Shown in pieces: positions 28,240 to 64,000 of a DNA stretch of 64,000 nt. Within the stretch, counting starts at the first letter, position 1; each line of letters begins with the position of its first letter. Location: the NCBI GenBank assembly GCA_038997165.1, contig JAWBAK010000001.1, positions 436,169 through 500,168 of the forward strand, read 5' to 3'. The position numbers and the translations under genes are program-made. Below the pieces are notes generated by a model. It was given only the letters and a program-made list of their open reading frames with translations. It searched no databases and had not been told where the DNA came from. Origin of the DNA: Candidatus Aenigmatarchaeota archaeon. Lineage in GTDB: Archaea > Aenigmatarchaeota > Aenigmatarchaeia > CG10238-14 > SpSt-28.

Positions 28240-29211
28240 ATGGATGTCAATAGAACTGCAAAAATTAAATTAATAGGTTTAATGTTATTTTTAATTTTTT
28301 CTTTGTCGTTAATTTTTGCAGAGGAAAAAAAAGAAGGTATAAACATTACAGAAATTACAGAAATTATAATTGCTATATTACCAATTATATTTGTTATTTT
28401 AATTTTACTTTATTTGGGTGGTTTTTTAAAATTTGGAAAAGTAGGAATACCTTGGCCTATTATTATTTATTCAGCAATTATAATTATAATTTTTGTATTA
28501 CCTATATTACAAAAGTTTGGAATTATACACATATTTCCAGATAATCCAGACGAAATATTTAGCAGAGAAGAGTTTAAAGGATTTAAACAATATAAATTAC
28601 CAGAAGGAGTATGTAAAGCATTTCTTTCTTTAAATATTAGTGAAAGTGTTTCTTGTTATATGCCTGCGTTCATATATTTCTTTTTATTACCTTTTGTTTC
28701 AATATATGCAATTACATGGGCATTTTTAAAACAGATTAAAATTTTTGAAGGTTTAGGTAGAAACCTAGAAGGATTGATTGCGTTTATTATAGCTTTTATG
28801 ACACTTCCAATGGGTACTTTTATTTTATTAGTAGCACTTTGGTTTAGTGTAATGGGTGCATTTTCAATAGCAATTTTTGTAGCTATGTTTTTGGCTGGTG
28901 TGTTTTTCAGGGGTTTAGGATTCGTAGAGGAAAAGCGCTTTGAATATATTGGAAAAAGAGCTAGGGATGAATACTTAAGAAAAGTACATAATGCAGCAAG
29001 ATTAGCAATAGACAGAATTAATAGAGCTAGTGACGTAGATGAAATAATAAGAGCTGTATATCAATTTATTGAAAAGACTGGACATGATGTAGATTTTAGT
29101 AAAATCGATGAAATTAGAAAGAAATCTAATTTAGAAGATGCTAAGAAGGCAGCAACAAGTCTGATAGAGGAATTAACTTCTAAAACAGGTTCAGCTTCTA
29201 AAACAGGTTAA
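28240..29211 (+). CDS. Multi-pass membrane protein, paralog of 32568 and 33122
   Basis: Signal-like N-terminus, several TM segments, FLLPF...W..L...KIF motif, charged C-terminal tail. Confidence 0.75.
   Translation: MDVNRTAKIKLIGLMLFLIFSLSLIFAEEKKEGINITEITEIIIAILPIIFVILILLYLGGFLKFGKVGIPWPIIIYSAIIIIIFVLPILQKFGIIHIFPDNPDEIFSREEFKGFKQYKLPEGVCKAFLSLNISESVSCYMPAFIYFFLLPFVSIYAITWAFLKQIKIFEGLGRNLEGLIAFIIAFMTLPMGTFILLVALWFSVMGAFSIAIFVAMFLAGVFFRGLGFVEEKRFEYIGKRARDEYLRKVHNAARLAIDRINRASDVDEIIRAVYQFIEKTGHDVDFSKIDEIRKKSNLEDAKKAATSLIEELTSKTGSASKTG
29177..29209 (+). repeat. 15-bp direct repeat CTTCTAAAACAGGTT x2 (period 18)
   Basis: Seen at 29177-29191 and 29195-29209; encodes TSKTG/ASKTG at the protein C-terminus. 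Confidence 0.8.
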
Positions 29212-31436
29212 TAAATTCTTTCCATAATTCTTTCTTCCCATCTTTTATAAATTTCATTAGAATCTAATTTTCCAATCTCGTTTTTTACTTCTTCAGAGAT
29301 TAGATTAAACAATTCATTACTCCATACAACAAACTCAGCCTCTAAAAGTTCTGGTCTTTTAAGTTCTTCGCTTAGTTCAACTAATCTTTGTTTTATTTTT
29401 GCTCTAAGTAAAATATTATTCCATACTAAATCCCAATTTCCATAAAATTCTGGAATTCTTTTTGAAATTTCTCTTATAACAAAACTTTCTCCATTAATTA
29501 GTGTTTGAGTTGGTAATAAGGTATCTTCTTTTGCATTATAAATCATTAATGGAGCAAATGCATTTTCAGCTAATGGATCTTCTTCCCAATGTTTTTTAAC
29601 TTCGACAACTTCAACAACTCTTTTATATCTTCTTAATCCATCTGCAGATTTTAAATTTGCAGAAATTATTATTAAATCTACCGCTTTAAAACTTGTTTTA
29701 GGAACTTTAAGATCATTAACAACTCTATCGAAAACTCCATATGCAGATTCTCCATGAATTGTTCCAGCAACACTATGTGCCAATGCACCAACTCTCATTG
29801 CTTCAAAAAGCGTTAATGCTTCTGTAGATCTAATTTCTCCAATTATTAATGCACTATCTCCCAATCTTAATGCAGTTCTTAAAGCTTCTTCAGCAGGTAA
29901 TTCGCTTTCTACTTTTGTTATTACACTTCTAGATTTTAATCTTTCGATATTAAATCCTAATTCTCTCATTTGTGGTACAGGCAATTCTAAAGTATCTTCG
30001 ATAACAATTATTCTATATTTTCTGGGAATTTCTAACATTATTGCTCCTAATAAACTAGTTTTTCCTGAACCTCTTCCACCAGCAACTAAAAAACTTCTTC
30101 CACCAGCAACTATAAAATTCATTAATCCAGCAAACAAAGGATTAATTGCTTTCTTTTTTATTAATAATGGTAAAGTCCATGGTTTATCTCTATGTCTTCT
30201 AAAGGCAAATGATAAACCTTCTGGATTTAAACTTCTTGTAGTAATTGCTACTCTAGCTTTTCCCTCTGGTATTGATAATTCAGTATCTAAAACTGGATTT
30301 GCTTCATCTAATGGTCTTCCAGAATATAATCTAAACTTAGTTGCCCAATTTTCAGCTTCTATAGGAGAAATTACTATATTTGTTTCACATTCCTCGTAAT
30401 TTGCGTGTTGAACAAAAATTGGAAGCATTCCTATTGGTGCATTAACATAAATATCTGTAACATTTTCATCTGCAAGAATTCTTTCTAAAATTCCAAAGCC
30501 TACAGTATATCTAACTAGAATATCTGCCAATTCTTTCATTCTTTTTTCTGGAATCGGTATGTTTAATTCTTGTGAAACTCTTTTAATTAAGTCTAATTCT
30601 AAATTATAAAATGCTTCTCTTGTCTTTTGAAAATCTTTTAGTTCAGTTTCACTTGGTCTATGTTCTGCTAAATATTCTCTAACTTTTTCTAAAACCTTTA
30701 TTTCATCGCTTGTTAATAAAAATTCTGGTGCATATAAAACATATACATATCTAACTTTGTTCGGAACTTTATAAATTTCAACTTTTATATTTTTAAATTC
30801 ATATTCTTCAACTTTTATTGAATTTTTTGGTAATGTTAAATAAAATTTTGTTTCCATGAAGATTGGTCTTATTATTGGGGAAAAAATCTCTCTATAAATT
30901 CTTCTATCTCCAGGTCTATATAAATAATTTTCTTCTATTTCTTTTTCTCTCAATTTTTTTATTATATAAAGCTTTTCTAATTCTTCTAATATAGGATTTA
31001 TATGATTTTCAACAAAACTCTTCAAAATATAATCTTTATTTTTTATTGAAATAAACTCCAATCTATTTTTTAATGAAATAAGTTTTTTATAACTTTCAAT
31101 ACAATCTGATTTTATGTTTTCTACTATTTCATTAAGAAGATTAAAATAATTCGAAAGTTTTTCGAAAAATTTAATTTCTTCTGGAAATGCTGTTAATAAT
31201 TTTTTTGAATGTATATTTTCGTAACAATTGGCAATTTCTTTCAATATCTTTGTTTGTTCATAATCATATTCTAATTCTCTTTCTCCAACGATTAAAATTT
31301 CTATAATATTTTTGTTTGCAATTAGATTTTCTATAACTAATTTCATTGTTTCTTTTCCATCTTCAATTGTTATTAAATCATTCCAACCAGCTCTTAAGTC
31401 TATATATAGTTTGTTTTCTCTTATGTTAATTTCCAT
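29208..31436 (-). CDS. Type II/IV secretion ATPase (FlaI/TadA/VirB11 family) with long N-terminal extension
   Basis: GGRGSGKT Walker A, IEDTLEL Asp box, ALRLG..LIIGEIR Walker B, GTIHG His box. Confidence 0.92.
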   Translation of the reverse strand: MEINIRENKLYIDLRAGWNDLITIEDGKETMKLVIENLIANKNIIEILIVGERELEYDYEQTKILKEIANCYENIHSKKLLTAFPEEIKFFEKLSNYFNLLNEIVENIKSDCIESYKKLISLKNRLEFISIKNKDYILKSFVENHINPILEELEKLYIIKKLREKEIEENYLYRPGDRRIYREIFSPIIRPIFMETKFYLTLPKNSIKVEEYEFKNIKVEIYKVPNKVRYVYVLYAPEFLLTSDEIKVLEKVREYLAEHRPSETELKDFQKTREAFYNLELDLIKRVSQELNIPIPEKRMKELADILVRYTVGFGILERILADENVTDIYVNAPIGMLPIFVQHANYEECETNIVISPIEAENWATKFRLYSGRPLDEANPVLDTELSIPEGKARVAITTRSLNPEGLSFAFRRHRDKPWTLPLLIKKKAINPLFAGLMNFIVAGGRSFLVAGGRGSGKTSLLGAIMLEIPRKYRIIVIEDTLELPVPQMRELGFNIERLKSRSVITKVESELPAEEALRTALRLGDSALIIGEIRSTEALTLFEAMRVGALAHSVAGTIHGESAYGVFDRVVNDLKVPKTSFKAVDLIIISANLKSADGLRRYKRVVEVVEVKKHWEEDPLAENAFAPLMIYNAKEDTLLPTQTLINGESFVIREISKRIPEFYGNWDLVWNNILLRAKIKQRLVELSEELKRPELLEAEFVVWSNELFNLISEEVKNEIGKLDSNEIYKRWEERIMERIY

Positions 31437-31464: not shown

Positions 31465-31851
31465 ATGGTAGAAAAAATAAGTTCTCAGGATCAAAAAATT
31501 ATAAATATTCTTAACGACATGAATTTATATTTAAAATTTTTAGAACAAAGAATTATTAAATTAGAATTGGAGTTAAAAACTTTGAATGAAAATTTTGAAA
31601 AATATAGAAAAACGGTTATAGAAGAAATAGATAAACTAAAAAAAGAGAGTTTATCTCTTAAAAATTTGATAGATTCTTTAAATTTAGAAATAGAAAAAAT
31701 AAAATTAGAATTGAAGAAAAAAGCAGATTTAGTTGAAGTTAAAGAAATAAAAGAATTATTTAATCTTTTTAATCCGCTTAAATCAACTTTTGTAACGAAA
31801 GAAGAAGTTAAGAGAATTATAAACGAATTAATAAATATTAAAAAAGAATAA
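31465..31851 (+). CDS. Coiled-coil hypothetical protein
   Basis: 128 aa, continuous heptad pattern, L/E/K rich. Confidence 0.75.
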   Translation: MVEKISSQDQKIINILNDMNLYLKFLEQRIIKLELELKTLNENFEKYRKTVIEEIDKLKKESLSLKNLIDSLNLEIEKIKLELKKKADLVEVKEIKELFNLFNPLKSTFVTKEEVKRIINELINIKKE

Positions 31852-31857
31852 TTTATT

Positions 31858-32568
31858 ATGATTTTATTTGGTAGTAAAAAAGAAAAAAAAGAAGGTAAGG
31901 GAGAAATTCCAACAGAAAAAGTCAAAAATTTTTTAAATAAAGGGTTTAGCGAAATAGAAATTATTGATATTTTAAGAAAGGAGGGATATTCGCCAGAAGA
32001 AATTGATAAAGCACTTATGCAAGCTTCTATCGAAATAAAATCTTCTCAATTATTTCAATCTCCTCAAACTTCATCGCAACAAAATTTAATTTCTCAAAAT
32101 TTATCTTCTCAATCTCAAATTCTTCAACCTCAACTTCAAACTTCTCAATCAACTTCTTTACAAACTCAAATAGTTGAAGTTAAGCCAGCTCAACCTACAA
32201 GTATACAAAAAGAAGTTAAAGAAAGTTTTGAAGAATCTCAGATAGATTATATAAGTTTACAAGAATATATAGATTACTTATTGAGATCAAAAACTCAAGA
32301 AATAAATAAAAGATTGATGGAAATAAATTTAAAGTTTAAAGAGTTCGAAGAAAGGGTTTTAAGTTTAAAAGATGAAATCGAATCTGTATCAAAAGGTACG
32401 AAAGAAGATTTAAATAAGATTTTAAATGAAATAAGATTAAATAGAGATAATATAAATGATTTATCAATAAAGGTTGAAACTTTAAATAAAACTTTAAAAG
32501 AACTTTTACCATCTTTAATAGAAAGCGTAAGATTATTAAGTGAAATAATTCAAAAACTTAAATCATAA
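31858..32568 (+). CDS. Hypothetical protein: small helical N-domain, Q/S/P-rich linker, C-terminal coiled coil
   Basis: KGFSEIEIIDILRKEGYSPEEIDKAL; low-complexity SSQ/QSPQ linker; heptad C-terminal half. Confidence 0.78.
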   Translation: MILFGSKKEKKEGKGEIPTEKVKNFLNKGFSEIEIIDILRKEGYSPEEIDKALMQASIEIKSSQLFQSPQTSSQQNLISQNLSSQSQILQPQLQTSQSTSLQTQIVEVKPAQPTSIQKEVKESFEESQIDYISLQEYIDYLLRSKTQEINKRLMEINLKFKEFEERVLSLKDEIESVSKGTKEDLNKILNEIRLNRDNINDLSIKVETLNKTLKELLPSLIESVRLLSEIIQKLKS

Positions 32569-33125
32569 TGAATACTTTAGAAGAAATAATAAGAAATACT
32601 TTAATAGATACTGGAATAATAACTTTTATTGTTCCCTCGCTATTATTTATGACTTTAGTTTATGTTTTTCTAACTCGATCAAAAATTGTTGAGTCAAAAG
32701 CGATAGCTGGAATAATTTCTTTTTCAGTTTTTTTATTAGTATTAATTTTTCCAATAATATCTGGAATTAATATTTCAATATTTCTTTCAACTTTTTTTGT
32801 TCAAATGTTTTTTCTAACTTTAATTCTTTTAATAGGTTTGGTAACTTCTTCTATATTTTATTCGGATTTTTCAAAAGTATTAGAGAGATTTCAAAGAAGC
32901 AGAAGTATGGTAGTAGCTATGATAGTATTAGCAATAGTAATTTTTGTTACTAGTGGAATGTTATCTTTTCTAATTTCAACATTGGGAGGACCTTCTGTTG
33001 CTTATGAAAAATTTGAAGGAAAAGCTGTACCAACTGAATTTACATTTACTCTAGCTCTTTTAGTTTTGTTAGTTATATTTGCAGTGATATTAGTTGCTGC
33101 TGGAAGGTTGATTGGTAGAGAATGA
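32568..33125 (+). CDS. Multi-pass membrane protein (paralog family)
   Basis: About 5 TM segments; FIVPS...Y..L..SKI motif. Confidence 0.78.
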   Translation: MNTLEEIIRNTLIDTGIITFIVPSLLFMTLVYVFLTRSKIVESKAIAGIISFSVFLLVLIFPIISGINISIFLSTFFVQMFFLTLILLIGLVTSSIFYSDFSKVLERFQRSRSMVVAMIVLAIVIFVTSGMLSFLISTLGGPSVAYEKFEGKAVPTEFTFTLALLVLLVIFAVILVAAGRLIGRE

Positions 33126-33658
33126 GCGATCCTATTACTGAATTAATTTTAACTCTTCAGAATTTAGGTTTTTTTAAATTTATTATTCCATTTATTTTAA
33201 CATCTGCAGTTTTTTATGGATTATTAAGAAAAAGTAAAATATTTGGAGATCCGAGAGAAAATATTGCCGTAAATGCTACTATTGCAATTTCTGCAGCTTT
33301 TTTAGTTTCTGCAGCTCCTATAATTGCTGGGATTGATATTACTTCTTATCTTTCTGGTTTCTTAATTTATATAACATTTGTAATTGTTGCAATAATTGTA
33401 ATTTCTTTTATTCCGTTTATTTTTAAACCTTCAATAAGCGAACTAGGAGCAACAATTAATAAAAAAACTTTTTTAGTAATGTTTTTTATTACTCTTATAA
33501 TTTTTATTATTATTGGTTTACTAATTTTTAAAAATTTAAATTTTGCATTTCCTCAAATAGCTTCCGAAGAATTTTATTCGACTTTAGGTTTAATAATATT
33601 TCTTATAATATTTTCAATAGTAATATATTTTTCTTTACGACCAACAAAAACTAGTTAA
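33122..33658 (+). CDS. Multi-pass membrane protein (paralog family)
   Basis: About 5 TM segments; FIIPF...Y..L..SKIF..NA.IA motif. Confidence 0.78.
   Translation: MSDPITELILTLQNLGFFKFIIPFILTSAVFYGLLRKSKIFGDPRENIAVNATIAISAAFLVSAAPIIAGIDITSYLSGFLIYITFVIVAIIVISFIPFIFKPSISELGATINKKTFLVMFFITLIIFIIIGLLIFKNLNFAFPQIASEEFYSTLGLIIFLIIFSIVIYFSLRPTKTS

Positions 33659-45098: not shown

Positions 45099-45102
<4 letters not shown>
43582..45102 (+). CDS. rpoB2: RNA polymerase subunit B'' (Rpo2N)
   Basis: QIDSYNDF, DPGGYFIING.E, DDIDHYANKR, ARELHPT, ETPEG. Confidence 0.95.
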
Positions 45103-49347
<4,245 letters not shown>

Positions 49348-49376
<29 letters not shown>

Positions 49377-51561: not shown

Positions 51562-52154
51562 GCGAACTAAAATTATTCGGTAAATGGGATTGGAACGTTG
51601 AAGTAAAAGATATTGGATTAAAAAGATATATAAATCTAAAACCTTGTATTATTCCTAGAACATATGGAAGATATAGTCAAATAAGATTTGGTAAAGCAAA
51701 TATGAATATAGTAGAAAGATTAATTACTAAGATGATGGTACCTGGACATAAGGGTAAAAAACATTTAGTTTCTTCAGCTAGATGTGTAGGAAAAACAGAA
51801 AAAATTATAAAAATAGTAAAAGAAGTTTTTGAAATAATTGAGAAAAAAACTAAGAAAAATCCTATAGAAGTATTGGTAAGAGCTATAGAAAATGCTGCAC
51901 CATTAGAAGAGCCAATATCTTATCAAGTTGGAGGAATTATTGCTAGAACTGCTGTTATAGTTTCTCCGCAAAGAAGAGTTGATTTAGCGTTAAGAAATAT
52001 TGTAAATTCTTGTTATAGAAGAAAAGTTGGTTTTACTAAAATGTCTGAACTTTTAGCAGAAGAAATAATTGCTGCTGCTAATAACGATATTTCGAAAAGT
52101 TATGCATTAAAAGAGAAAGAAAGAATAGAAAAAGAAGCTGAAGGTGCTAAATAA
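51558..52154 (+). CDS. rps7: Ribosomal protein uS7
   Basis: [37 protein letters not shown]. Confidence 0.96.
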
Positions 52155-52944
52155 TTTTTTCTAATATTTCTCTTTGTTTTTCAGAAACTTTTTTAACAAT
52201 ATTTTCTAAATCTCTTGTATAGTGAATTATTAATTCTTTTCCTACTCTTCCCTGTAGCAAATCGATTTCATGCGATCTTAAATTATCAAAGAAACTTTCG
52301 AACGCCCTTCTAAAATCATATGGTTTAATATTATATTTTTTTAAATTTTTCCAATAACTTAGTTTTGATTTATATGCAATTTTTATATATTCAATGGCTT
52401 TTTCGTTTAAAATTGTTATAAAAACTTTTTTTGTCTTTCTTATTAATAATAGTTCGAAAACATAGGCATCATATATTTTTTGTTTTTTAATTTTTTCAAA
52501 ATTTTTTATAAAATAAATTAGTTCATGTGTTCTTAATCCTGTTAATAGATGTAAAATTGTAGTTGCTTTTAATTTTTTTGGAAAATATTTAATTTTTTCA
52601 AGCAGTTCATCTTTATTAATTTTTTCTTCGAGTATTTTTGGAATTTTTGGTATATACCAGCTAATGTTTGCTTTTTTTCTTAGTTCATTAAATTTTTTAT
52701 AATAAATATCTACATCATTTAATGCATCTAAGAATTTTGAATATGCTGCTAATGCCTGTAAAATATGTTTTTTTAAAGTTTTTTTATTTTCAGTAATTTT
52801 CTTAAATTCTATTGAAAAATCAACAGCATTTAAATTTAGTAAATATGAGTATTTTTTTGCATAGTTAACTAAATTGTTAATATGAGTTTTATTAGTGCAT
52901 TTTAAACTTAGAAATTCTTTAAATTTGTTCCAATCTATTTGCAT
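52147..52944 (-). CDS. Tyrosine recombinase/integrase, SSV1-like catalytic domain
   Basis: TGLR..E, RKTK, YDFRR.F, IDLLQGR, HYT catalytic Tyr. Confidence 0.82.
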   Translation of the reverse strand: MQIDWNKFKEFLSLKCTNKTHINNLVNYAKKYSYLLNLNAVDFSIEFKKITENKKTLKKHILQALAAYSKFLDALNDVDIYYKKFNELRKKANISWYIPKIPKILEEKINKDELLEKIKYFPKKLKATTILHLLTGLRTHELIYFIKNFEKIKKQKIYDAYVFELLLIRKTKKVFITILNEKAIEYIKIAYKSKLSYWKNLKKYNIKPYDFRRAFESFFDNLRSHEIDLLQGRVGKELIIHYTRDLENIVKKVSEKQREILEKII

Positions 52945-54029: not shown

Positions 54030-55582
<1,553 letters not shown>

Positions 55583-55769: not shown

Positions 55770-56489
55770 ATGGGCTATTTAGAAATAATTATATCATCAA
55801 CAATATTTTTAATGTTATTGGTAACAGCTTTTCTTTTCTTGAATTATAGATTTCAAGAATATAAATATATAAATTCAGAAATTTTTTATAAAGAACTTTT
55901 GCTTTCATATTTTGATAGGCTAATATATTCTAATCCAAACGTTTATAAAGATTTGGTTATTAAAATTTTTGAAATTAATATTAGCGAAAGTGATAATCAA
56001 GTTATTTATATAAATTTCAATGTTAGTTGTGAAAAGAAAATAAATGTAACATCTATAAGAATTTATAATTCTAATTTTTCTGAATTAGCATTTAAAATAA
56101 AAGATTATGATGTTTGTAGCGATAATAGTTTATATAGAGCTAATATATCAATTTTTTTACAAAATTTTTCTAACAAAGAAATTTTATATGTTTTTATGTC
56201 ATCTAGTTATGGAAATCCAATATTATATGATTTTGAAGAAAATTATAAAAATGCAAGTTATAAATATATAGGCACTATTACTTTAAAGGGTTTAGATCTT
56301 TTTACTTTTGAAAATATTGTAGAAGAATATTGTAAAAATAGAGGAGAAGTCGAGATAGAGGTTTTTGAAAATGAAAATATAATTATGAGTTGTAAAAAAA
56401 ACAAAGCTGGAAATGTTTTTTCTTTTAATATGCCTATTTTATCGATTAATGGAAAAAAACTAAATATAATTTTTAGAATTTTTGAATAA
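55770..56489 (+). CDS. Pilin-like/single N-terminal TM surface protein
   Basis: MG-YLEIIISSTIFLMLL hydrophobic N-terminus; Asn/Cys-rich extracellular part. Confidence 0.6.
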   Translation: MGYLEIIISSTIFLMLLVTAFLFLNYRFQEYKYINSEIFYKELLLSYFDRLIYSNPNVYKDLVIKIFEINISESDNQVIYINFNVSCEKKINVTSIRIYNSNFSELAFKIKDYDVCSDNSLYRANISIFLQNFSNKEILYVFMSSSYGNPILYDFEENYKNASYKYIGTITLKGLDLFTFENIVEEYCKNRGEVEIEVFENENIIMSCKKNKAGNVFSFNMPILSINGKKLNIIFRIFE

Positions 56490-56490
56490 A

Positions 56491-56877
56491 ATGGAAAAAT
56501 TTTTAGAATTGGCAATTTCTTTTACTATTTTATTATCTTTTATTTTTGTTTTTCTTTTTTATTCTTCCAATTTATATTTAGAAGATGATGAAATAATAAA
56601 AGTTAAAATTTATAATGTTTTAAACTCTTATAATCTTGAAATAAGAAGCTATGCGTTTTTAGGAAAAACAACTGAAATAGAAAATATTTTAAAAAATGAA
56701 CTTCCAAAAATTTATGATTTTAAAGTTTTGATTTGTTATGAAAAAAATTATGATGAATGCTTTAAAAATATAAAGTTTAATGCAAATAACGTTTTTTCTG
56801 TAAGTTATTTTTTTTCATCTAACTTTACTAACTATGAAAATATTGAATTAATAATATATGCTTGGAAAAAAATTTAA
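56491..56877 (+). CDS. Pilin-like protein (ATG 56491; TTG 56482 alternative)
   Basis: MEKFLELAISFTILLSFIF N-terminal helix with Glu. Confidence 0.58.
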   Translation: MEKFLELAISFTILLSFIFVFLFYSSNLYLEDDEIIKVKIYNVLNSYNLEIRSYAFLGKTTEIENILKNELPKIYDFKVLICYEKNYDECFKNIKFNANNVFSVSYFFSSNFTNYENIELIIYAWKKI

Positions 56878-57418
56878 ATCACAATTTTTTATAATTGCAA
56901 CAGGAATATTTATATTAATTTTTAGTGTTAACTTTTTTTATTTTGGATATTTAAGTAAAAAAACTAATTATCCAAGCAATTTAATAATTTTAAGAACTAT
57001 CGATAATTATCTAACAGAAGCAAACCTTCTTTTGGAAAATGAAAAAATTTCAGAATTTTTTAGTTTTTCAGAATTTTTTATTAATACTTCTAAAAAAAGA
57101 AATTTTATTATAGAAGTTTTGTTTTCAAATATTAGTTTAGATTCTTCTCAAAAAAAGATTAATTTTGAAATATATCTTTTTTCTGAAAGAGAATATTTTT
57201 TAAATATTTCTTCTGATATAGATTTCTTAGCTTTTAATTTAGAGCCAAGAATTTTAAAAAATATAAATATTAGTTTTGAAAATTCTCAATTAATTAATAT
57301 AACTATTTTTAATTCATCTTTTTTTATAGTAAATTGTGAATCAAATTGCAAATTTTTAATTTCTATGGGTTATAAAGATGATATAAAAATAATTAAATCT
57401 TTGCTTTTGAAAAGCTAA
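56858..57418 (+). CDS. Pilin-like protein with class III signal
   Basis: KKFKS|QFFIIATGIFIL. Confidence 0.65.
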   Translation: MLGKKFKSQFFIIATGIFILIFSVNFFYFGYLSKKTNYPSNLIILRTIDNYLTEANLLLENEKISEFFSFSEFFINTSKKRNFIIEVLFSNISLDSSQKKINFEIYLFSEREYFLNISSDIDFLAFNLEPRILKNINISFENSQLINITIFNSSFFIVNCESNCKFLISMGYKDDIKIIKSLLLKS

Positions 57419-57435
57419 AGAGTAATTTTATATTT

Positions 57436-57900
57436 ATGAAATTATTATCGGAATTTGTTTCGAAAGTTTTGATTTTTCTTATTTCTATTATAGCTATTTC
57501 TATAGCTTTACTTTTTTTAAATCCTATAATAGATAGGAATTTAAATTCTATTTCAATTCAAGAAGCCATTTCTAATATGAAAAAAATTGAAGCTATAAGT
57601 AAAGAAGTTTTAAGCGAAGCAATAGGATCTCAGAGAGTTTTAGAGATTAGAATTTATAGAGGTATTTTATATGTTAATAATAGTTCAATCGTTTATATTC
57701 TAGAATCAGATAATATTCCTTTAGAAGATTTTACTAAAAAAGATGGAAATTTATTTATTAAAAAAATTGGTAATACTTTTTCTATAACTTTAAATTTTGA
57801 ATATGCAAATATTGTTGGCAATGTTTATTTATCTAGTGGAAATCATAGAATATGTATTCTTAAAGATGCTGAGCTAACAATAAAAGTTTATGTTTGTTAA
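57436..57900 (+). CDS. Pilin-like protein
   Basis: MKL-LSEFVSKVLIFLISIIA, then amphipathic helix and EV.SE..GS.R motif. Confidence 0.65.
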   Translation: MKLLSEFVSKVLIFLISIIAISIALLFLNPIIDRNLNSISIQEAISNMKKIEAISKEVLSEAIGSQRVLEIRIYRGILYVNNSSIVYILESDNIPLEDFTKKDGNLFIKKIGNTFSITLNFEYANIVGNVYLSSGNHRICILKDAELTIKVYVC

Positions 57901-57908
57901 AATTTTTT

Positions 57909-58775
57909 ATGAGATTAATATCTAATACAATATCTCTTTCTATTTATATAATTTTATCACTTTTTTTAATATCTTTTTTTTTATCTATTACTTTTAAAGA
58001 ATTAATTGAAAAATCTAGAATAAGTAGCACTTTTTTACAAGTAATAGAACAATTAAGATTTTTAGATGCTACAATTTTATATTTAAACAGTTTAGATATA
58101 GGTTCAAAAACAAGTATAAAGATTTATATTCCAGAAGGAAGATTATTAGTTAAAGATGGTAAAATATTTTATGAATTAGAAACTGTTTCAACTTTTGAAT
58201 TTCTTAAAAATATTGTAAGATCTTTTAAAAATTTGGCATTAATATTTAGAAATGTTAGTATAAAATGTGAAATTAGAGAAAATAATTGTTTAGAAAGCGA
58301 GGAATGCATTTTTTCTATGTATAAATTAAATAATTCTCATATAGCAGATTGCAATTCTTTAAATTATCCTTATAAAATTTGTTGTAAAGATTTAGAAATT
58401 AGAAAAGCTGAGACTTGTTATGAAAAAGAGTCTGAAATTCTTAGAATTTTAAAAGATGAAAACTCTCATGCAGGTTTTAATAAATATTCCTTTAGAATTT
58501 GCTCATATCCAATAATTTTATGTTCTTTAAAGAATAAATGTAGCAATAATGAAATTTGTGTAGCGTCTTTTTATAAAGATTTTAATTCTCATGCAGCTGT
58601 ATGTAATTATTATCCAAATAATCTTTGTTGTTATTCTTCTATTTCAGAAATAGGTAAAATAATTCTAAGTTATTTAGATATAGAAATTATTGGTAATTTT
58701 GTAATTTCTAAAGGAGAATATACCTTAGTAATAGAAAAAATCGATTTTAATAAAATAAAAATTTATGTATTATGA
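57909..58775 (+). CDS. Pilin-like protein with three Cys-rich NSH repeats (ATG 57909; TTG 57894 alternative)
   Basis: MRL-ISNTISLSIYIIL; similar to the 57436 protein around GS....I.I..G.L.V; repeats at about 58266-58631. Confidence 0.65.
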   Translation: MRLISNTISLSIYIILSLFLISFFLSITFKELIEKSRISSTFLQVIEQLRFLDATILYLNSLDIGSKTSIKIYIPEGRLLVKDGKIFYELETVSTFEFLKNIVRSFKNLALIFRNVSIKCEIRENNCLESEECIFSMYKLNNSHIADCNSLNYPYKICCKDLEIRKAETCYEKESEILRILKDENSHAGFNKYSFRICSYPIILCSLKNKCSNNEICVASFYKDFNSHAAVCNYYPNNLCCYSSISEIGKIILSYLDIEIIGNFVISKGEYTLVIEKIDFNKIKIYVL

Positions 58776-59245
58776 AGTTAATATCTGCTTATATAGCAAC
58801 AATTATAATAGTTTTAGTAACTCTTACTATTGGATTTTTTGTTTATACTTGGTATTTTCAATTTTTTCAAAGAACTGGTGAAGAAATTGAAAGGATTGAA
58901 GAAAAACGAATTTCTTGCCAATTTGGTTCATTTATAGTTTTAACAGAAACTCTAAATTGTACTTTTGAATTTTTAAATTTTTCTTTAAAAAACAATGGTT
59001 ACATAGATTTATATAATTTGAAAGTTGTTGTTTTTGATGGAATAAAGATGCATACATTAGATGTTTATGATGAAAATGGAAATATTGCTGATATTAATAA
59101 TCCATTAAAGCCTAATACTGTTAACAATTATTATGTTAATATTTCTGGAATTTCTAAAATTTTAAGTTTAGAGTTTTTAACTCAATGTGCTAATGTAAAT
59201 ATAAAGATTAAAGACTTAAATATATCATGTACACAGAAAGAATAA
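58772..59245 (+). CDS. Archaeal type IV pilin-like protein
   Basis: MKL-ISAYIATIIIVLVTL aligns with MKG-ISPLIATVLL of the 42843 pilin; N.G..DL and L.P motifs. Confidence 0.75.
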   Translation: MKLISAYIATIIIVLVTLTIGFFVYTWYFQFFQRTGEEIERIEEKRISCQFGSFIVLTETLNCTFEFLNFSLKNNGYIDLYNLKVVVFDGIKMHTLDVYDENGNIADINNPLKPNTVNNYYVNISGISKILSLEFLTQCANVNIKIKDLNISCTQKE

Positions 59246-59841
59246 AAACAATTAGTAGGGGAATAATATTAATAATTTTAGGTATTATAATAGGTATATA
59301 TCCTTTTCAAATAGTTGGAAATTTTTTAGAGGTTGAAAGTATTAGGGCAAATACTAAAAAATTTTATGAGTTATTAATACCAAATTCTATTGTTAGTGTT
59401 GAAAGTGTAAAAAAGGAGGGAGAAATGTATAAAGTTTTAGTTAAGTTGATTTTAAATAATAATGTTAATTATATTGAAGCGTGGGTATCTAAAGATTCAA
59501 ATATTTTAGTTGAAGGTGTAATATACTTAAAAGATTCTATTAAAACTTTAGAAAAATATAAGAAATTTGTAGAATGTTTAAATAATAAAGGAGTAAAGAT
59601 ATATGGTTTATTAGATTCTCAAAATTATCCTGATGCTGCATTATTAACTTCTAGACAACTAAATTTATTGGGAAGATATTCTTATTTAATTTTTGTTAGT
59701 TGCGATGGTGATATGATGCAAGCATGTATAAATTCTGGAATAACACAATTTCCAGCAGTAGTTTATAATGATAAAGTTTATTTTGGAGTTGGAGATATTG
59801 ATTGGTTTTCTAATTTAACTGGATGTAAATTTATTGATTAA
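59227..59841 (+). CDS. Membrane-anchored thioredoxin-like protein lacking CxxC
   Basis: N-terminal TM, DsbC-N-like strand region (..SKD), FVECL..KGVKIYG, VSC...C...GI..FP. Confidence 0.6.
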   Translation: MYTERIKTISRGIILIILGIIIGIYPFQIVGNFLEVESIRANTKKFYELLIPNSIVSVESVKKEGEMYKVLVKLILNNNVNYIEAWVSKDSNILVEGVIYLKDSIKTLEKYKKFVECLNNKGVKIYGLLDSQNYPDAALLTSRQLNLLGRYSYLIFVSCDGDMMQACINSGITQFPAVVYNDKVYFGVGDIDWFSNLTGCKFID

Positions 59842-59878
59842 AAATAAATTTAATTTATTGTTTAATTAAATTTTATTT

Positions 59879-60649
59879 ATGTTAGAAAGAATATTATTAG
59901 TATTTTTAATTTTTATTTCAACTTTTTTTATTGCTATCTCTTATGATTGTCCATTACAATCCCATCCTTTATCCGAAATTTGTCCTATAGATGTTAATTT
60001 AAATATGAGAGGATTTAATATAACAAATGTTGGAGAAATTATTGTTAGTGGAAGAATTGTTGCATCGATTTTATGTATTGGTAATGATTGTAAATCTTCA
60101 TGGCCTAGTATAGTTGAATCGGATCCATTTTGGTCTTTTAATATTAGTAGAATAAATATAGGATATTTAATTAAAAGAGGTGAATCTGGAATTTTTCAAT
60201 CAATAATTTATGAAAAAAATGGTAAAATAGGTATTGGAACTGAAAATCCACAAGATACACTTGAAGTTATTGGTAATATAACTGCTAGTGGGATTATTAG
60301 AGCAAATAAAATATGTGTAGGAGAAAATTGTAGCGATATTCTTGGAAACTTAAGTGGTCATGGTATAAAAAATACAATTGCTTATTGGTCTAGTGAAAAT
60401 ACTTTAGAATCAACTCCATTTTATGTTAATAGTAATTTTGACCTTAATTTATCTTGGAAAAGTATTTTTAATGTTCTTTGGCTTAATTCAACTTATATAT
60501 ATTCTTCGGATTTGATTTATTCTTCTGGAAAAGTTGGAATATCTACATATCCGGAATATTCGTTAGATGTTATAGGTAATATTAGAGTTAGAATAGGATC
60601 AACTGTTTTTACTATTGAGAATACTGGAGATGTTTTAGTAGCACTATGA
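59879..60649 (+). CDS. Secreted fibre-like protein (GxxGIG repeats)
   Basis: Signal peptide, SHPLSEI, GKIGIGTENP..LEVIG, LCIGNDCKSSWP module shared with downstream genes. Confidence 0.78.
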   Translation: MLERILLVFLIFISTFFIAISYDCPLQSHPLSEICPIDVNLNMRGFNITNVGEIIVSGRIVASILCIGNDCKSSWPSIVESDPFWSFNISRINIGYLIKRGESGIFQSIIYEKNGKIGIGTENPQDTLEVIGNITASGIIRANKICVGENCSDILGNLSGHGIKNTIAYWSSENTLESTPFYVNSNFDLNLSWKSIFNVLWLNSTYIYSSDLIYSSGKVGISTYPEYSLDVIGNIRVRIGSTVFTIENTGDVLVAL

Positions 60650-62496
60650 ATAAAAAATATATATTTAATTTAAAGTATTATATTATGAAGATTAATATAG
60701 GTTTATCTCACATATTTTTAATCTTTTTAATGACTTTACTTTTTAACACATCTTTTTCTCAAGGAAATTTTATAATAAGAAATAAAACAGATATAAACAT
60801 AGTATATTTTATAGTTAACGGAACTACTGGTAGAGTTGGTATAGGATTAATAAATCCTCAATATAAATTAGATGTTAGCGGTGATGTTAGAGTTAGTGGT
60901 AACTTATTTGTAACTAGTGGAATTAATATTGGAGGTGATTTAAGTATAGGAGGAAATATAGTAATAACTTCAGGAAGAGTAGTACAAAATATAGCTAGTG
61001 TTGGAACTAATTTAATTCCTTCTAGTGATAATTCTTATGATTTAGGTAATTCAACTCATAGATGGAGAGCTGTTTATGCAAGTGGATATTATATTGGCGC
61101 TACTCAAATAATTGATAGTTCAAGAAATATAATAAATGTTAATTGGGTTAATGCAACTAATATAAACGCAACTCAATCAATAAGAGCAAGTATTATTTAT
61201 CAAGGAAACAATCAAGTTATAGATACGATAAGTGCAAATGCACCAATTACTGTAAGTAGAAGTGGAAGTTCAGTAACTATTGGACTACAAGCAAGTGGAG
61301 TAACAGCAGGAACTTATGGATCTGCATCACAAGTACCTCAAATTCAAGTTGATGCATATGGAAGAATAACTTCTGCAAGCAATGTTAACATTGCTATTGA
61401 TGCTAGCCAAATTGTTTCTGGAATAATTTCTTCTGCGAGATTAGATAGTAATATAGCTTGGTTAAATAGAACTCAAACATGGACAGCCCCTCAAACATTT
61501 AATGAAAACGTATGGTTTAATAAAAATGTTTTTATAGTCGGCAATATTTCTTATGTTAATGTTCAAAATTTAAACGTTAATGGAAGTTTCGTTCCAATAG
61601 CTACCGGAGTTTTTAGTTTAGGAAGTCCAGAATACAAGTGGAAAGATATATATGGAATAAATATATATGGAGATAATGTTTATTCTGGAGGTAATTTGGT
61701 ATTAACAAACGTAACCAATTTTGCTAATTCAGCAGATAGTGACATTACAGTTAGTGGAACTTATAATAGCCTTAATTTACAAATAAGAGCTGGAGCTGTT
61801 GGAACAAATGAATTAGCTCAAATTTCTTGTCCTCCAAATCAGGTATTAGCTTCGATTGGTGGAGGTAGTTATACTTGTGTTGATGTAAATCCAGCAAATG
61901 TTATTAATGGTACTGGTCAGCCAGGACAAATAGCTTATTTTTCATCTACTAATACATTAAGCGGAAGTAATCAGTTATTTTTGGATACTACGAATTGGAG
62001 AGTTGGTATAGGAACTACTTCACCAGTTAGAAAATTAGATGTGGTTGGAGATATTAATGCAACTCAAGCAATTTATTCAAGCCAAGGATATTATGTTGGC
62101 ACAACTCAAATAATAACTTCTGGAAGAGTATTACAAAATATAGCTAATGTTGGAACCCATTTAATTCCTTCTAGTGATAATGCTTTTGATTTAGGTAGTT
62201 TAACTAATAGATGGAGATGGGTTAATGCAACTAATATAAATGCAACTCAATCAATAAGAGCTTCTCAAATTTGTATAGGAAATGATTGTAGAAGTGCATG
62301 GCCAACTTTAGTAGAAACTGATCCATATTGGAATTCAAATATAACTGCTATTTCAGCTAATTATTTAATTAAAAGAAGTCCAACCGGTATAGCTCAATCG
62401 ATAATTTACGATGATGGAGCTAAAGTAGGAATTGGAACAAATTCTCCAGCTGGTTTATTGCATATTAGAGGAGGAGATATAATAATAGAAGTGTAA
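60646..62496 (+). CDS. Secreted tail-fibre-like modular adhesin
   Basis: Signal peptide, VGIG..P..KLDV.G repeats, P..DN..DLG....RW repeats, SGVTAGTYG..VDAYGRIT fibre motif, many N-X-S/T sequons. Confidence 0.8.
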   Translation: MNKKYIFNLKYYIMKINIGLSHIFLIFLMTLLFNTSFSQGNFIIRNKTDINIVYFIVNGTTGRVGIGLINPQYKLDVSGDVRVSGNLFVTSGINIGGDLSIGGNIVITSGRVVQNIASVGTNLIPSSDNSYDLGNSTHRWRAVYASGYYIGATQIIDSSRNIINVNWVNATNINATQSIRASIIYQGNNQVIDTISANAPITVSRSGSSVTIGLQASGVTAGTYGSASQVPQIQVDAYGRITSASNVNIAIDASQIVSGIISSARLDSNIAWLNRTQTWTAPQTFNENVWFNKNVFIVGNISYVNVQNLNVNGSFVPIATGVFSLGSPEYKWKDIYGINIYGDNVYSGGNLVLTNVTNFANSADSDITVSGTYNSLNLQIRAGAVGTNELAQISCPPNQVLASIGGGSYTCVDVNPANVINGTGQPGQIAYFSSTNTLSGSNQLFLDTTNWRVGIGTTSPVRKLDVVGDINATQAIYSSQGYYVGTTQIITSGRVLQNIANVGTHLIPSSDNAFDLGSLTNRWRWVNATNINATQSIRASQICIGNDCRSAWPTLVETDPYWNSNITAISANYLIKRSPTGIAQSIIYDDGAKVGIGTNSPAGLLHIRGGDIIIEV

Positions 62497-62858
62497 ATAA
62501 ATAAAATATAAGTTTAAAATTAAAAAATATTAAAAAGAAAAGATATTTTATGAAAACAAAAAATTTTTATATTGTTTTGTTTTTGATATTTATTTTTATT
62601 AATATTTATAAACTAGACTTGGTTAGTTCTCAAGTATATAAAGATTTTATAATTAGAAATATTTCTAATACTTCTACTGTTTATTTTATAGTTAACGGAA
62701 CTACTGGTAGAGTTGGTATAGGATTAATAAATCCTCAATATAAATTAGATGTTAGCGGTGATGTTAGAGTTAGTGGTAACTTATTTGTAACTAGTGGAAT
62801 TAATATTGGAGGTGATTTAAGTATAGGAGGAAATATAGTAATAACTTCAGGAAGAGTA
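60805..62858 (+). repeat. Repeat A: 177-bp identical direct repeat, 60805-60981 = 62682-62858
   Basis: Base-by-base comparison by eye, offset 1877. Confidence 0.9.
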
Positions 62859-63997
62859 TTGCAAAATATAGCTAGTGTTGGAACCCATTTAATTCCTTCT
62901 AGTGATAATGCTTTTGATTTAGGTAGTTTAACTAATAGATGGAGATGGGTTAATGCAACTAATATAAATGCAACTCAATCAATAAGAGCTTCTCAAATTT
63001 GTATAGGAAATGATTGTAGAAGTGCATGGCCAACTTTAGTAGAAACTGATCCATATTGGAATTCAAATATAACTGCTATTTCAGCTAATTATTTAATTAA
63101 AAGAAGTCCAACCGGTATAGCTCAATCGATAATTTACGATACAGGAACAAATGTTGGAATTGGAACAACTTCACCAAGCTATAAATTAGATGTAGTTGGA
63201 GATATAAGAAGTACAGGAAGTGTGATAACTTCAATTGTAAAAGCAGAGGCTCCTTATACTTACGTGGGACAGGCAGATAATCTATTAGGAGTGGCTAGAC
63301 TTATGCCTAATGCTTTCGGTTTTAATCCACCTTATAAAGTTGAAGAATATAACCCAGGAAGTGGTACGTGGAACGACATAACCCAAAATTACACTTGGGG
63401 ATATATCACAGATTTAAGGGGAACAGAAGTGGCAATTCCATTGGCAGCTAATGTAGATAAGACTATTAGATTTTACTTTAATATAGGAGGCTGGAGTGGG
63501 GGAGATCTAACTGCCATTGTATTATATGCAAGATGGATAAACAGCCTAAAACAAGTAAAGGTTGAATCTTCGACAACTTCAGATTTCTCAAGTGGAGTAA
63601 CCACAAGATTAGATTGGAACGGAAATATAGGACATTGGGATGAGGTAACTCTTTGGCGCTTGACAAGTAGAACTGGCGGTGATACTTATATTAGAGTCAC
63701 TTTCACTTTTATGAGAACAAGTGATGGAGAAATAAGGATAAGGGAGCTAATGGGATTAAGTTATGCGGCTGTCGGTAGAATATTTGAAGGATATGTTCCA
63801 TATAGTTGGGATCACAATAAAAATGTTTTCTTTTTGGGTAATGTTGGAATAGGAACTACTTCACCAGTTAGAAAATTAGATGTAGTTGGAGATATTAATG
63901 CAACTCAAGCAATTTATTCAAGCCAAGGATATTATGTTGGCACCTATCAAATAATAACTTCTGGAAGAGTATTACAAAATATAGCTAGTGTTGGAAC
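62002..63997 (+). repeat. Repeat C: about 155-bp near-identical direct repeat, 62002-62156 and 63843-63997
   Basis: Offset 1841; six mismatches counted by eye. Confidence 0.85.
62148..63140 (+). repeat. Repeat B: 265-bp identical direct repeat, 62148-62412 = 62876-63140
   Basis: Base-by-base comparison by eye, offset 728. Confidence 0.9.
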
Positions 63998-64000
63998 TAA
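62550..64000 (+). CDS. Secreted tail-fibre-like modular adhesin with lectin-like insert (runs off window end; not in ORF track)
   Basis: Hand translation from ATG 62550 (MKTKNFYIVLFLIFIF..) is open to 64000 and reuses modules of the previous gene. Confidence 0.85.
   Translation, partial: MKTKNFYIVLFLIFIFINIYKLDLVSSQVYKDFIIRNISNTSTVYFIVNGTTGRVGIGLINPQYKLDVSGDVRVSGNLFVTSGINIGGDLSIGGNIVITSGRVLQNIASVGTHLIPSSDNAFDLGSLTNRWRWVNATNINATQSIRASQICIGNDCRSAWPTLVETDPYWNSNITAISANYLIKRSPTGIAQSIIYDTGTNVGIGTTSPSYKLDVVGDIRSTGSVITSIVKAEAPYTYVGQADNLLGVARLMPNAFGFNPPYKVEEYNPGSGTWNDITQNYTWGYITDLRGTEVAIPLAANVDKTIRFYFNIGGWSGGDLTAIVLYARWINSLKQVKVESSTTSDFSSGVTTRLDWNGNIGHWDEVTLWRLTSRTGGDTYIRVTFTFMRTSDGEIRIRELMGLSYAAVGRIFEGYVPYSWDHNKNVFFLGNVGIGTTSPVRKLDVVGDINATQAIYSSQGYYVGTYQIITSGRVLQNIASVGT

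Follow-up and report, generated by a model that had tools for sequence, protein, structure and literature searches.

The fibre-gene array and its modules

The 64,000-nucleotide window analysed here (G000:C1:436169-500168; GenBank assembly GCA_038997165.1) comes from the genome of a Candidatus Aenigmatarchaeota archaeon (651,930 bp in 4 contigs, 24.5% G+C, 94.5% complete, metagenome-type source). Near its right-hand end begins a tandem array of three genes, followed by a fourth, that appear to encode mosaic fibre proteins related to phage tail fibres; sequence past window base 64000 was also taken in, up to and beyond the end of gene 3 (65201). Gene 1 (59879-60649, + strand, 256 aa) has a hydrophobic N-terminus followed by a head module, 'CPLQSHPLSEICPID', a CIGNDC block like block C described below, and VGIG motifs; its 3' end overlaps the start of gene 2 by 4 bp. 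Gene 2 (60646-62496, +, 616 aa) consists of a signal-like N-terminus (S2) and the modules A, R1, D, X, B, R2 and C, with a short tail, X being a unit similar to a phage-fibre repeat. Gene 3 (62550-65201, +, 883 aa, cut by the end of the window at 64000) reads S3, A, R3, C, VGIG, Y, B, R4, D and Z, where Z is a series of repeated VGIGT units. Gene 4 lies beyond the window (65194-66474; L009 11363-12643), overlaps the stop of gene 3 by 8 bp, and encodes 426 aa with a signal-like N-terminus and a Cys-rich C-terminal half made of repeated DYYC..C.YT...NC..YD.C units; Pfam gave it no family and the Atlas no lead.

The original prediction, made from the sequence of the window, had described three tandem genes of the signal-peptide type with modules in common. 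Read by eye, each of genes 1 to 3 opens with a few charged residues and then turns hydrophobic, and regular-expression counts agree with the proposed modules: VGIG..P..L[D/H]V occurs once in gene 1, three times in gene 2 and seven times in gene 3; ITSGRV..NIA is absent from gene 1 and occurs twice in gene 2 (plus one degenerate copy) and twice in gene 3; IPSSDN..DLG..W occurs zero, two and two times; and C[IV]G[NE][ND]C two, one and one times, respectively.

The repeated DNA blocks that had been predicted were all found. Block A is an exact 177-bp repeat (60805-60981 in gene 2, 62682-62858 in gene 3, both +), and block C an exact 265-bp repeat (62148-62412 and 62876-63140, both +) encoding WVNATNINAT..CIGNDC..IYD. 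Block B (62002-62110 in gene 2, paired with 63843-63951 in gene 3, both +) has 5 mismatches in 109 bp, and the longer pair that had been given as a third block with 6 mismatches (62002-62156 and 63843-63997) is 96% identical over 155 nt, with about 6 mismatches. The ITSGRV motif, said to occur four times, marks the start of a 120-bp unit, R, at 60962, 62111, 62839 and 63952, and the join between the 177- and 265-bp blocks falls inside it. A comparison with the downstream sequence, which the prediction had called for, showed that gene 3, before reaching its stop at 65201, carries a junction, B-R4-D, reciprocal to the first, and that the fourth gene then follows. This brought out a further exact repeat of 137 bp, comprising the 3' part of R and block D (60983-61119, +, in gene 2; 63973-64109 in gene 3, partly past the window).

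The encoded proteins are unusual in composition. Their density of N-X-S/T sequons ranks 16th (gene 1), 21st (gene 2), 61st (gene 3) and 48th (gene 4) among 462 open reading frames (ORFs), with genes 1 and 2 above the 95th percentile; the median over the ORFs is 0.47 per 100 aa, as against 2.44 in gene 2, in which Lys and Glu together make up 2.8% of residues. Such a composition would fit exported glycoproteins. The G+C content of the fibre genes in window 60001-64000 is 29-32%, compared with 24.5% genome-wide, which may reflect either a composition rich in Gly, Thr, Ser and Val or a foreign origin. A tblastn search of the whole genome revealed no paralogue of the fibre genes elsewhere.

Reciprocal exchange within the R unit

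The R unit has the consensus ITSGRV.QNIA.VGT.LIPSSDN..DLG....RW. Its four copies, all on the + strand, are R1 (60962-61081), flanked by A and D; R2 (62111-62230), flanked by B and C; R3 (62839-62958), flanked by A and C; and R4 (63952-64071, passing the window's end at 64000), flanked by B and D. The left flank B encodes VGIGTTSPVRKLDV..GYYVGT.QI, while the right flanks encode AVYASGYYIGATQIIDS (D) and WVNATNINATQSIRASQICIGNDC..IYD (C). Gene 2 has the order A-R1-D ... B-R2-C and gene 3 the order A-R3-C ... B-R4-D, so the exchange is reciprocal. All four combinations of left flank (A or B) with right flank (C or D) are therefore found among the four copies of R; by the four-gamete argument, this set is unattainable by duplication alone and requires at least one exchange inside R.

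The edges of the exchanged tracts are sharp. Block A has 0/177 mismatches inside and 14/38 directly to its left; block C 0/265 inside and 9/36 directly to its right; block D with the 3' part of R 0/137 inside and 8/24 directly to its right; and block B 5/109 inside and 47/62 directly to its left. The R copies themselves record where the exchange took place. R4 is a clean R2-to-R1 recombinant with its switch between +20 and +36, and R3 passes from R1-type to R2-type between +10 and +46, with one private base at +22; single private bases also occur in R1 (at +20) and in R2 (at +36). All the switch points thus lie within +10 to +46 of R. Over its first 533 bp of similarity, gene 3 is colinear with gene 2 once the in-frame 1149 bp (383 codons) that separate R1 from R2 are left out. 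A crossover or conversion at the ITSGRV..VGT motif had been proposed from a single join; the case is now stronger, with the exchange reciprocal and all four flank combinations present, and both this reciprocity and the third exact block (D, 137 bp) are new relative to that proposal. The exchange between genes 2 and 3 is very recent.

An important question is whether these junctions, or the pairing of the 5' and 3' parts of the genes, could be chimeras produced by a repeat-induced misjoin or by the collapse of several strains into one metagenome-assembled genome (MAG). There are grounds for asking: the assembly has 4 contigs and a metagenome-type source, related strains at 90-99% identity co-occur in other sequencing runs, and in the run that best holds the locus (X1, with 0.93 of the sampled words of 60600-64000, which may be the source sample) the Logan contigs end exactly at the repeat edges without bridging them. 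Moreover, since A, C and D are exact and, at 137-265 bp, longer than the k-mer, three different paths run through all the segments; by our own reasoning from the k-mers, the two besides that of the assembly, each using every segment once, are S2-A-R3-C-tail with S3-A-R1-D-X-B-R2-C-Y-B-R4-D-Z, and S2-A-R3-C-Y-B-R4-D-X-B-R2-C-tail with S3-A-R1-D-Z.

Against this explanation, an uninterrupted series of 31-mers, each unique in the genome, spans every junction and ties the two-copy sequence to its left to that on its right (47 such 31-mers for the R3 junction), and the private bases sit within these unique runs. A misjoin does not create private bases, so the junctions were not made by the assembler. 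In X1, the 177-, 265- and 137-bp blocks form separate contigs with depths of 104.6, 117.9 and 103, and the contigs specific to gene 2 or gene 3 have equal depths (65.1, 69.3 and 63.5), all with 0 mismatches; these depths fit two copies per block in one genome, depth itself not being a copy number. Over the X1 bin L009 8907-9173, the summed depth is 123.5 versus about 104 from the two listed contigs, an excess that a junction contig of 78 bp and some 65x could account for, which is a matter of arithmetic only, no such contig being listed; L009 5169-7037 (window 59000-60868) has no X1 contig of matching depth and is an uninformative hole. In a survey of 24 R motifs in 265 proteins, all junction types but A-R-C (that is, A-R-D, B-R-C and B-R-D) were met again in other assemblies (P0124; P0005; P0123, a 2693-aa protein of genome G012; and P0168/G001). 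A wrong path would alter the lengths of the genes, not the existence of the four junctions. The four junctions are real, and an assembly artefact is an unlikely account of the locus.

Kinship with tail fibres and variation of the island

The original prediction had likened the array to trimeric phage fibres, in which units of the SGVTAGTY..VD..GR kind occur. Gene 3 indeed matches the tail-fibre families phrog_9942 (6.2e-29), phrog_3269 (2.9e-22) and phrog_18345 (1e-16) of PHROGs, with weaker matches for genes 2 and 1. Module X of gene 2 (61285-61452, +; aa 214-269) contains a single ~50-aa repeat of the phage-tail-fibre type (SGVTAGTY..VDAYGRITS). In alignment, this unit is 46-57% identical to the eight ~50-aa repeats in the homologue P0013, a protein that carries the Pfam families Phage_fiber_2 and Mtd_N. 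The kinship with phage fibres is upheld by these matches, although Phage_fiber_2 (PF03406) was not reported in gene 2 itself at E<=0.1. Gene 3 residues 671-771 also match Bd2133 (PDB 8OND) at 3.5e-6 and Bd3182 at 0.023, both from Bdellovibrio, and a profile that includes the VGIGT unit (A1) matches 8OND at 1e-4, the cyanophage fibre gp28 (8I4M) at 0.003 and Bd1334 at 0.007.

Homologues are very numerous: E<=1e-3 is reached by 40,948 representative proteins and E<=1e-30 by 608, and many are giants of 2,000-7,700 aa with dozens of matched stretches. Some bear the JGI name of trimeric autotransporter adhesin, an identity rejected here: the Pfam scan gave no YadA-type anchor domain, and the organism is an archaeon. 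Peptidase_S74 (PF13884), present in the homologue P0012, was found neither in genes 1 to 4 nor in the rest of the genome. The Y domain of gene 3 (63210-63839, +; aa 221-430) appears to be a globular insert and is a candidate glycan-binding domain, with homologues at 55-81% identity in other architectures. In the Atlas, it resembles F5/8 type C and galactose-binding-like folds (feature scores 0.79-0.93, TM 0.49-0.64), which is a lead only; when the Y alignment was compared by hhalign with P0093, which has a precomputed PF00754, only the flanking LP..DN.YDLGS..RWR motif was aligned.

Gene 2 has matches in 21 of the 41 genomes searched (this one, G000, included) and in two of the six other genomes of the genus. 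Several of these matches lie at contig ends, an observation that suggests that fibre genes break assemblies. Those two genomes, G001 and G005, keep eIF6, the 16S rRNA gene, the seven small genes upstream of the array and a 202-aa gene, with the anchor protein 80% and 66% identical, respectively, and G005 keeps the downstream genes as well; both carry other fibre genes. In G001, the next gene has a gene-1-type head, then B-R-D at 80% identity to gene 3 residues 425-569 and a Y-like start, after which the contig ends. In G005, the island holds a 587-aa fibre, 22-35% identical to genes 1 to 3, and a 1377-aa DUF2341/ConA-like protein, and is followed by a PD-(D/E)XK gene and AAA_14 genes, as in G000. 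G012, from another genus, has a single 2693-aa gene with a gene-1-type head and a gene-3-type C-terminus, followed by a homologue of gene 4 at 62% identity; this gene does not adjoin the small-gene cluster. The gene-1-type head is common to fibre genes of all three genomes. Gene 4 was found in none of the six same-genus genomes. When the modules of 17 database homologues were mapped, these blocks turned up at 70-96% identity but differently arranged, for instance as head-A-B-R-C-B-X in P0005 and as Y...A-R-D-Z in P0124. Related loci were found with neither gene 3 in genome contigs nor the 204-aa upstream protein in metagenome contigs, and alignment A2 gave only 3 weak loci in metagenome contigs, which were not used.

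The closest variant is P0010, a complete 340-aa ORF that is a chimera of a gene-2 head and a gene-3 tail. Its residues 1-145 track gene 2 from the second Met with few changes (signal, A, R and D); after residue 145, it continues gene-3-like, DSNRNLVNINQIIA.GPMNIDSGTLYVDSANDRVGIGT, with a different middle part, joining two VGIGT units that lie some 150 residues apart in gene 3, and it ends with the gene-3 C-terminus. Its R unit is itself mosaic, with a third breakpoint further 3' than those in G000. Another protein, P0264, is 99% identical to the 157-aa upstream protein of the window; the contigs of P0010 and P0264 are both listed as 6586 bp, and the two proteins presumably share one contig. 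The MAG with P0010 may then be that of a sibling strain. One explanation for P0010 is a real short fibre generated by exchange at R and at VGIGT; another is an assembly shortcut. From G001, G005, G012 and P0010 together, it appears that the locus, for which invariance across strains would have spoken against shuffling, does vary: the flanking genes are kept and the fibre genes differ.

Mechanism, function and chromosomal setting

These observations are best accommodated, and we think probably explained, by a set of surface fibres of mosaic build that owe their diversity to homologous recombination at conserved motifs. Genes 1 to 3, and probably gene 4, would make up a chromosomal array encoding beta-rich fibre proteins that are exported by Sec, glycosylated and built from a kit of modules common to phage tail fibres and to the mosaic adhesive trimer (MAT) fibres of Bdellovibrio. 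Export and glycosylation of the proteins seem likely from their N-termini and sequons, and trimeric fibres may be formed by analogy with these relatives. The 120-bp R unit and the VGIGT..KLDV unit, both conserved motif-coding stretches, would serve as patches of homology at which general homologous recombination, by crossover or by gene conversion with template switching, could re-join modules in frame. Either crossovers between R copies in duplicated genes would have taken place, or repair synthesis would have copied A-R from gene 2, switched template within R and continued through C (and likewise through B-R and then D); crossover and template-switch repair, and either direction of transfer, fit the data equally well. 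Selection for in-frame, foldable joins would account for the location of the joins in conserved structural motifs. Over longer times, the same process could give rise to the different fibre lengths and domain sets of related genomes.

Several points weigh against this interpretation. The matches to solved MAT structures are modest and appear to lie largely on the VGIGT-type repeat, and neither Pfam nor NCBIfam gave a family at threshold for genes 1 to 4. The galactose-binding-like fold of Y is an unconfirmed lead. The pairing of the 5' and 3' gene parts is taken from the assembly alone, two other k-mer paths being available, and P0010 comes from a fragmented MAG, in which the assembler may have taken a shortcut. 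The archaeon, finally, is without any known host.

If homologous recombination shuffles the modules, it might do so as a programme: a high-frequency system of the shufflon, pilE/pilS, vls or diversity-generating retroelement (DGR) type would switch fibre specificity within the population. The clustering of the exchange points in a 36-bp zone of R, the zero divergence of the exchanged tracts, the different architectures of close relatives, and the presence of Pfam Shufflon_N in the homologue P0025 and of Mtd_N in others are what such a system might produce. However, the repeats are direct rather than inverted, and genes 1 to 3 all have start codons and signal-like N-termini, which leaves no silent cassettes. 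A scan of 52 window ORFs at E<=1e-5 gave no recombinase family (an ORF at 52150-52944 had no match), and the shufflon was rejected on the absence of inverted sites and of such a recombinase; the DGR target was rejected on the absence of RVT_1 from the genome, which is 94.5% complete. No alternative joint is listed for X1, a weak point since contigs drop rare variants and cannot show absence. Three of the joints listed for runs X2, X3 and X6 were inspected: two lie at internally repeated motifs (WVNATNINAT and GYY.G..QII) and are explicable by ambiguous placement, and the third, at a VGIGT motif in X3, is a lead only; none of the listed joints was counted as an architecture variant. Of the original claim of shuffling by recombination or conversion, then, the recent exchange stands and ongoing or programmed variation is not borne out; there is no sign of a dedicated shuffling system, and programmed switching is improbable.

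The proteins might also not belong to the cell surface at all, and instead be tail fibres, either from an archaeal virus that is integrated or co-binned or from a tailocin-like particle, as the PHROG tail-fibre families that are their best matches, the cyanophage matches, and the Peptidase_S74 or Phage_fiber_2 of some homologues might lead one to think. This is very improbable: the N-termini encoded by genes 1 to 3 resemble signal peptides, the 549-kb contig with the array also carries core genes on its flanks, and the position of the array is conserved in two same-genus genomes. Capsid, portal, terminase and tail families were absent from 52 upstream ORFs (Pfam, E<=1e-5) and from 2 downstream ORFs (E<=0.001), and gene 2 had no relative in viral contigs and just 4 weak matches in 50,697 phage records. 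On the core-gene flanks, the lack of virion families in the scanned ORFs and the lack of a viral-contig relative, a provirus was rejected. A last alternative keeps the proteins at the envelope with a structural or other role, in an S-layer accessory, a biofilm matrix or a sheath, rather than in host recognition. Export signals, sequon enrichment and a beta-rich composition would fit any envelope protein, and several other giant sequon-rich ORFs in the genome could be the adhesins. Yet a rapid turnover of architecture beside conserved flanks is more typical of interaction proteins, and the nearest characterised relatives are adhesins; an elevated density of non-synonymous single-nucleotide polymorphisms (SNPs) is also reported for hypothetical surface proteins of Nanoarchaeota (PMC6142677). 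A purely structural role thus seems rather unlikely.

The recombining-fibre interpretation can be set against known systems. Phage tail fibres are the strongest family-level match (PHROG 6e-29), with the Phage_fiber_2-like unit in gene 2 and an in-frame exchange of modules at conserved motif DNA as further likenesses, and the fibre genes of P2-, Mu- and lambda-type phages have a mosaic evolution by exchange at conserved motifs. In contrast to phage fibres, the array is chromosomal, lies among core genes, has export signals and no virion genes, and has exchanged sequence between tandem paralogues rather than between co-infecting viruses. In Neisseria pilE/pilS, Borrelia vlsE and the R64 shufflon, surface-protein genes are diversified through recombination of repeated segments. 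The array likewise has chimeric, sharp-edged tracts in genes of the surface type, but neither silent cassettes, inverted repeats nor a dedicated recombinase was found in it, and no switching within a population was seen.

The MAT fibres of Bdellovibrio are trimeric surface adhesins for prey recognition, with an invariant N-domain, S74 and non-S74 subgroups and exchangeable tips (Caulton et al. 2024, PMC10769870). The array is alike to the non-S74 (NS74) fibres Bd2133 and Bd1334 of B. bacteriovorus in the VGIGT-type beta-helix fibre region (E 3.5e-6, a modest, repeat-based match) and in having no C-terminal S74 chaperone. An N-terminal export signal is a further likeness (signal-like by eye in the array), as is a cell that attaches to other cells, which is probable here; mosaicism is matched as well, block A standing right after the signal in gene 2, gene 3 and P0010, which then differ. 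On the other side, the archaeon has no outer membrane and one tandem array of three genes, whereas Bdellovibrio has 21 MAT genes, and the trimers and the surface binding of MAT are known, while the array is known from its sequence. On this evidence, the array would be an archaeal mosaic fibre adhesin of the tail-fibre and MAT kind, and a programmed switching of host attachment is not supported.

Host attachment itself, in which the Y domain of gene 3 might bind glycans, may be proposed from the MAT analogy, the symbiotic life of such archaea, the fast turnover of the island and the SNP density in nanoarchaeal surface proteins. More speculatively, a hyperthermophilic ectosymbiont of the DPANN group might recognise its host by trimeric fibres of the phage-tail-fibre or MAT type. 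Their reach and their receptor-binding domains, such as a galactose-binding-like insert, would be re-assorted between the tandem genes at two motif-coding splice points, and sibling strains would then carry different fibres and might differ in host range; if true, though this remains doubtful, the evolution of phage host range would have a parallel in archaeal cells. Little is known of the way in which DPANN archaea locate and hold on to their hosts, and the locus offers concrete candidates, homologous to the only characterised cell-borne adhesins of the tail-fibre-like kind. As candidates for DPANN host attachment, two papers name only S-layer, archaellum-like and lectin-like proteins (bioRxiv 10.1101/2023.10.27.564410; PMC11329633), and the library searched has no paper linking 'DPANN' with 'tail fiber-like'; the homologues from further organisms that are listed in the supplements to the MAT paper may bear on this. 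The locus also shows clearly, and in a form that can be dated, how fibres diversify when sequence is exchanged at a conserved motif, and the variable island that it marks out, set between conserved flanks, lends itself to comparison between strains.

On the 549-kb contig, the array has 16S rRNA, tRNA and small membrane-protein genes on one side and AAA_14/DUF4143 ATPase genes on the other. Core archaeal genes surround it (16S, eIF6, ribosomal proteins, RNA polymerase and reverse gyrase): the archaeal 16S rRNA gene is at 54064-55542, and a Pfam scan found core informational genes and reverse gyrase in the window. Parts of the locus are present in 18 hot-spring metagenome runs from 8 studies. 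The closest MAG proteins bear the NCBI labels 'Nanoarchaeales archaeon' and 'Candidatus Aenigmatarchaeota archaeon'. The source organism is a reduced, thermophilic DPANN archaeon, which probably lives attached to other cells. Cultivated hot-spring Nanoarchaeota, of similar genome size and G+C content, are obligate ectosymbionts (described in part in PMC4935971).

Directly upstream of the array, 55770-59841 (+) holds seven small genes with N-terminal hydrophobic helices and the 204-aa gene. The original prediction had taken this for a pilin cluster linked to the fibres in host recognition, neither part of which was confirmed. None of the seven proteins matched Pfam below E 0.001 (weak matches only) or PHROGs at E<=0.01, and the relatives found are annotated solely as 'hypothetical protein', the hydrophobic helices having been seen by eye. 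As to a functional link, the gene order of the cluster next to the fibre genes is conserved in G001 and G005, that is, in two of six same-genus genomes; in the other four the anchor gene was not found, and the adjacency is absent in G012. One protein of the cluster (57894-58775, +, 293 aa) has an internal Cys-rich duplication, 58447-58488 and 58570-58611, with 71% identity. Some 26 kb from the fibre genes, a T2SSE-family ATPase of the type IV filament type lies beside four small ORFs with no family match (29211-31436, −, and 31465-33655, +), possibly a second filament locus.

Other features of the surroundings may be mentioned. A single 1425-aa ORF (45099-49373, +) contains Rpb2 domains 4-7 followed by Rpb1 domains 1-5 and looks, from its domain order, like the C-terminal part of subunit B fused to subunit A'. 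A 265-aa ORF (52147-52944, −) between the S7 gene and eIF6/16S is also present in G001 and had no Pfam or PDB match. In the intergenic DNA, Tandem Repeats Finder detected nothing but short AT-rich arrays. Beyond the array (window-equivalent 67630-70010; L009 13799 onward), two shorter ORFs come after a complete AAA_14/DUF4143 ATPase gene; the scanned shorter one contains the DUF4143 end only, the counterpart site in G005 has three full copies, and both shorter ORFs have the look of broken paralogues. Six giant ORFs of very high N-X-S/T density that lie outside the window, unrelated to the fibre genes by tblastn, encode 9182 (C1:58060-85608), 3109 (C1:409425-418754), 2542 (C1:107726-115354), 1908 (C1:86840-92566), 1902 (C1:37945-43653) and 1616 aa (C2:18149-22999), and are probably other surface proteins.

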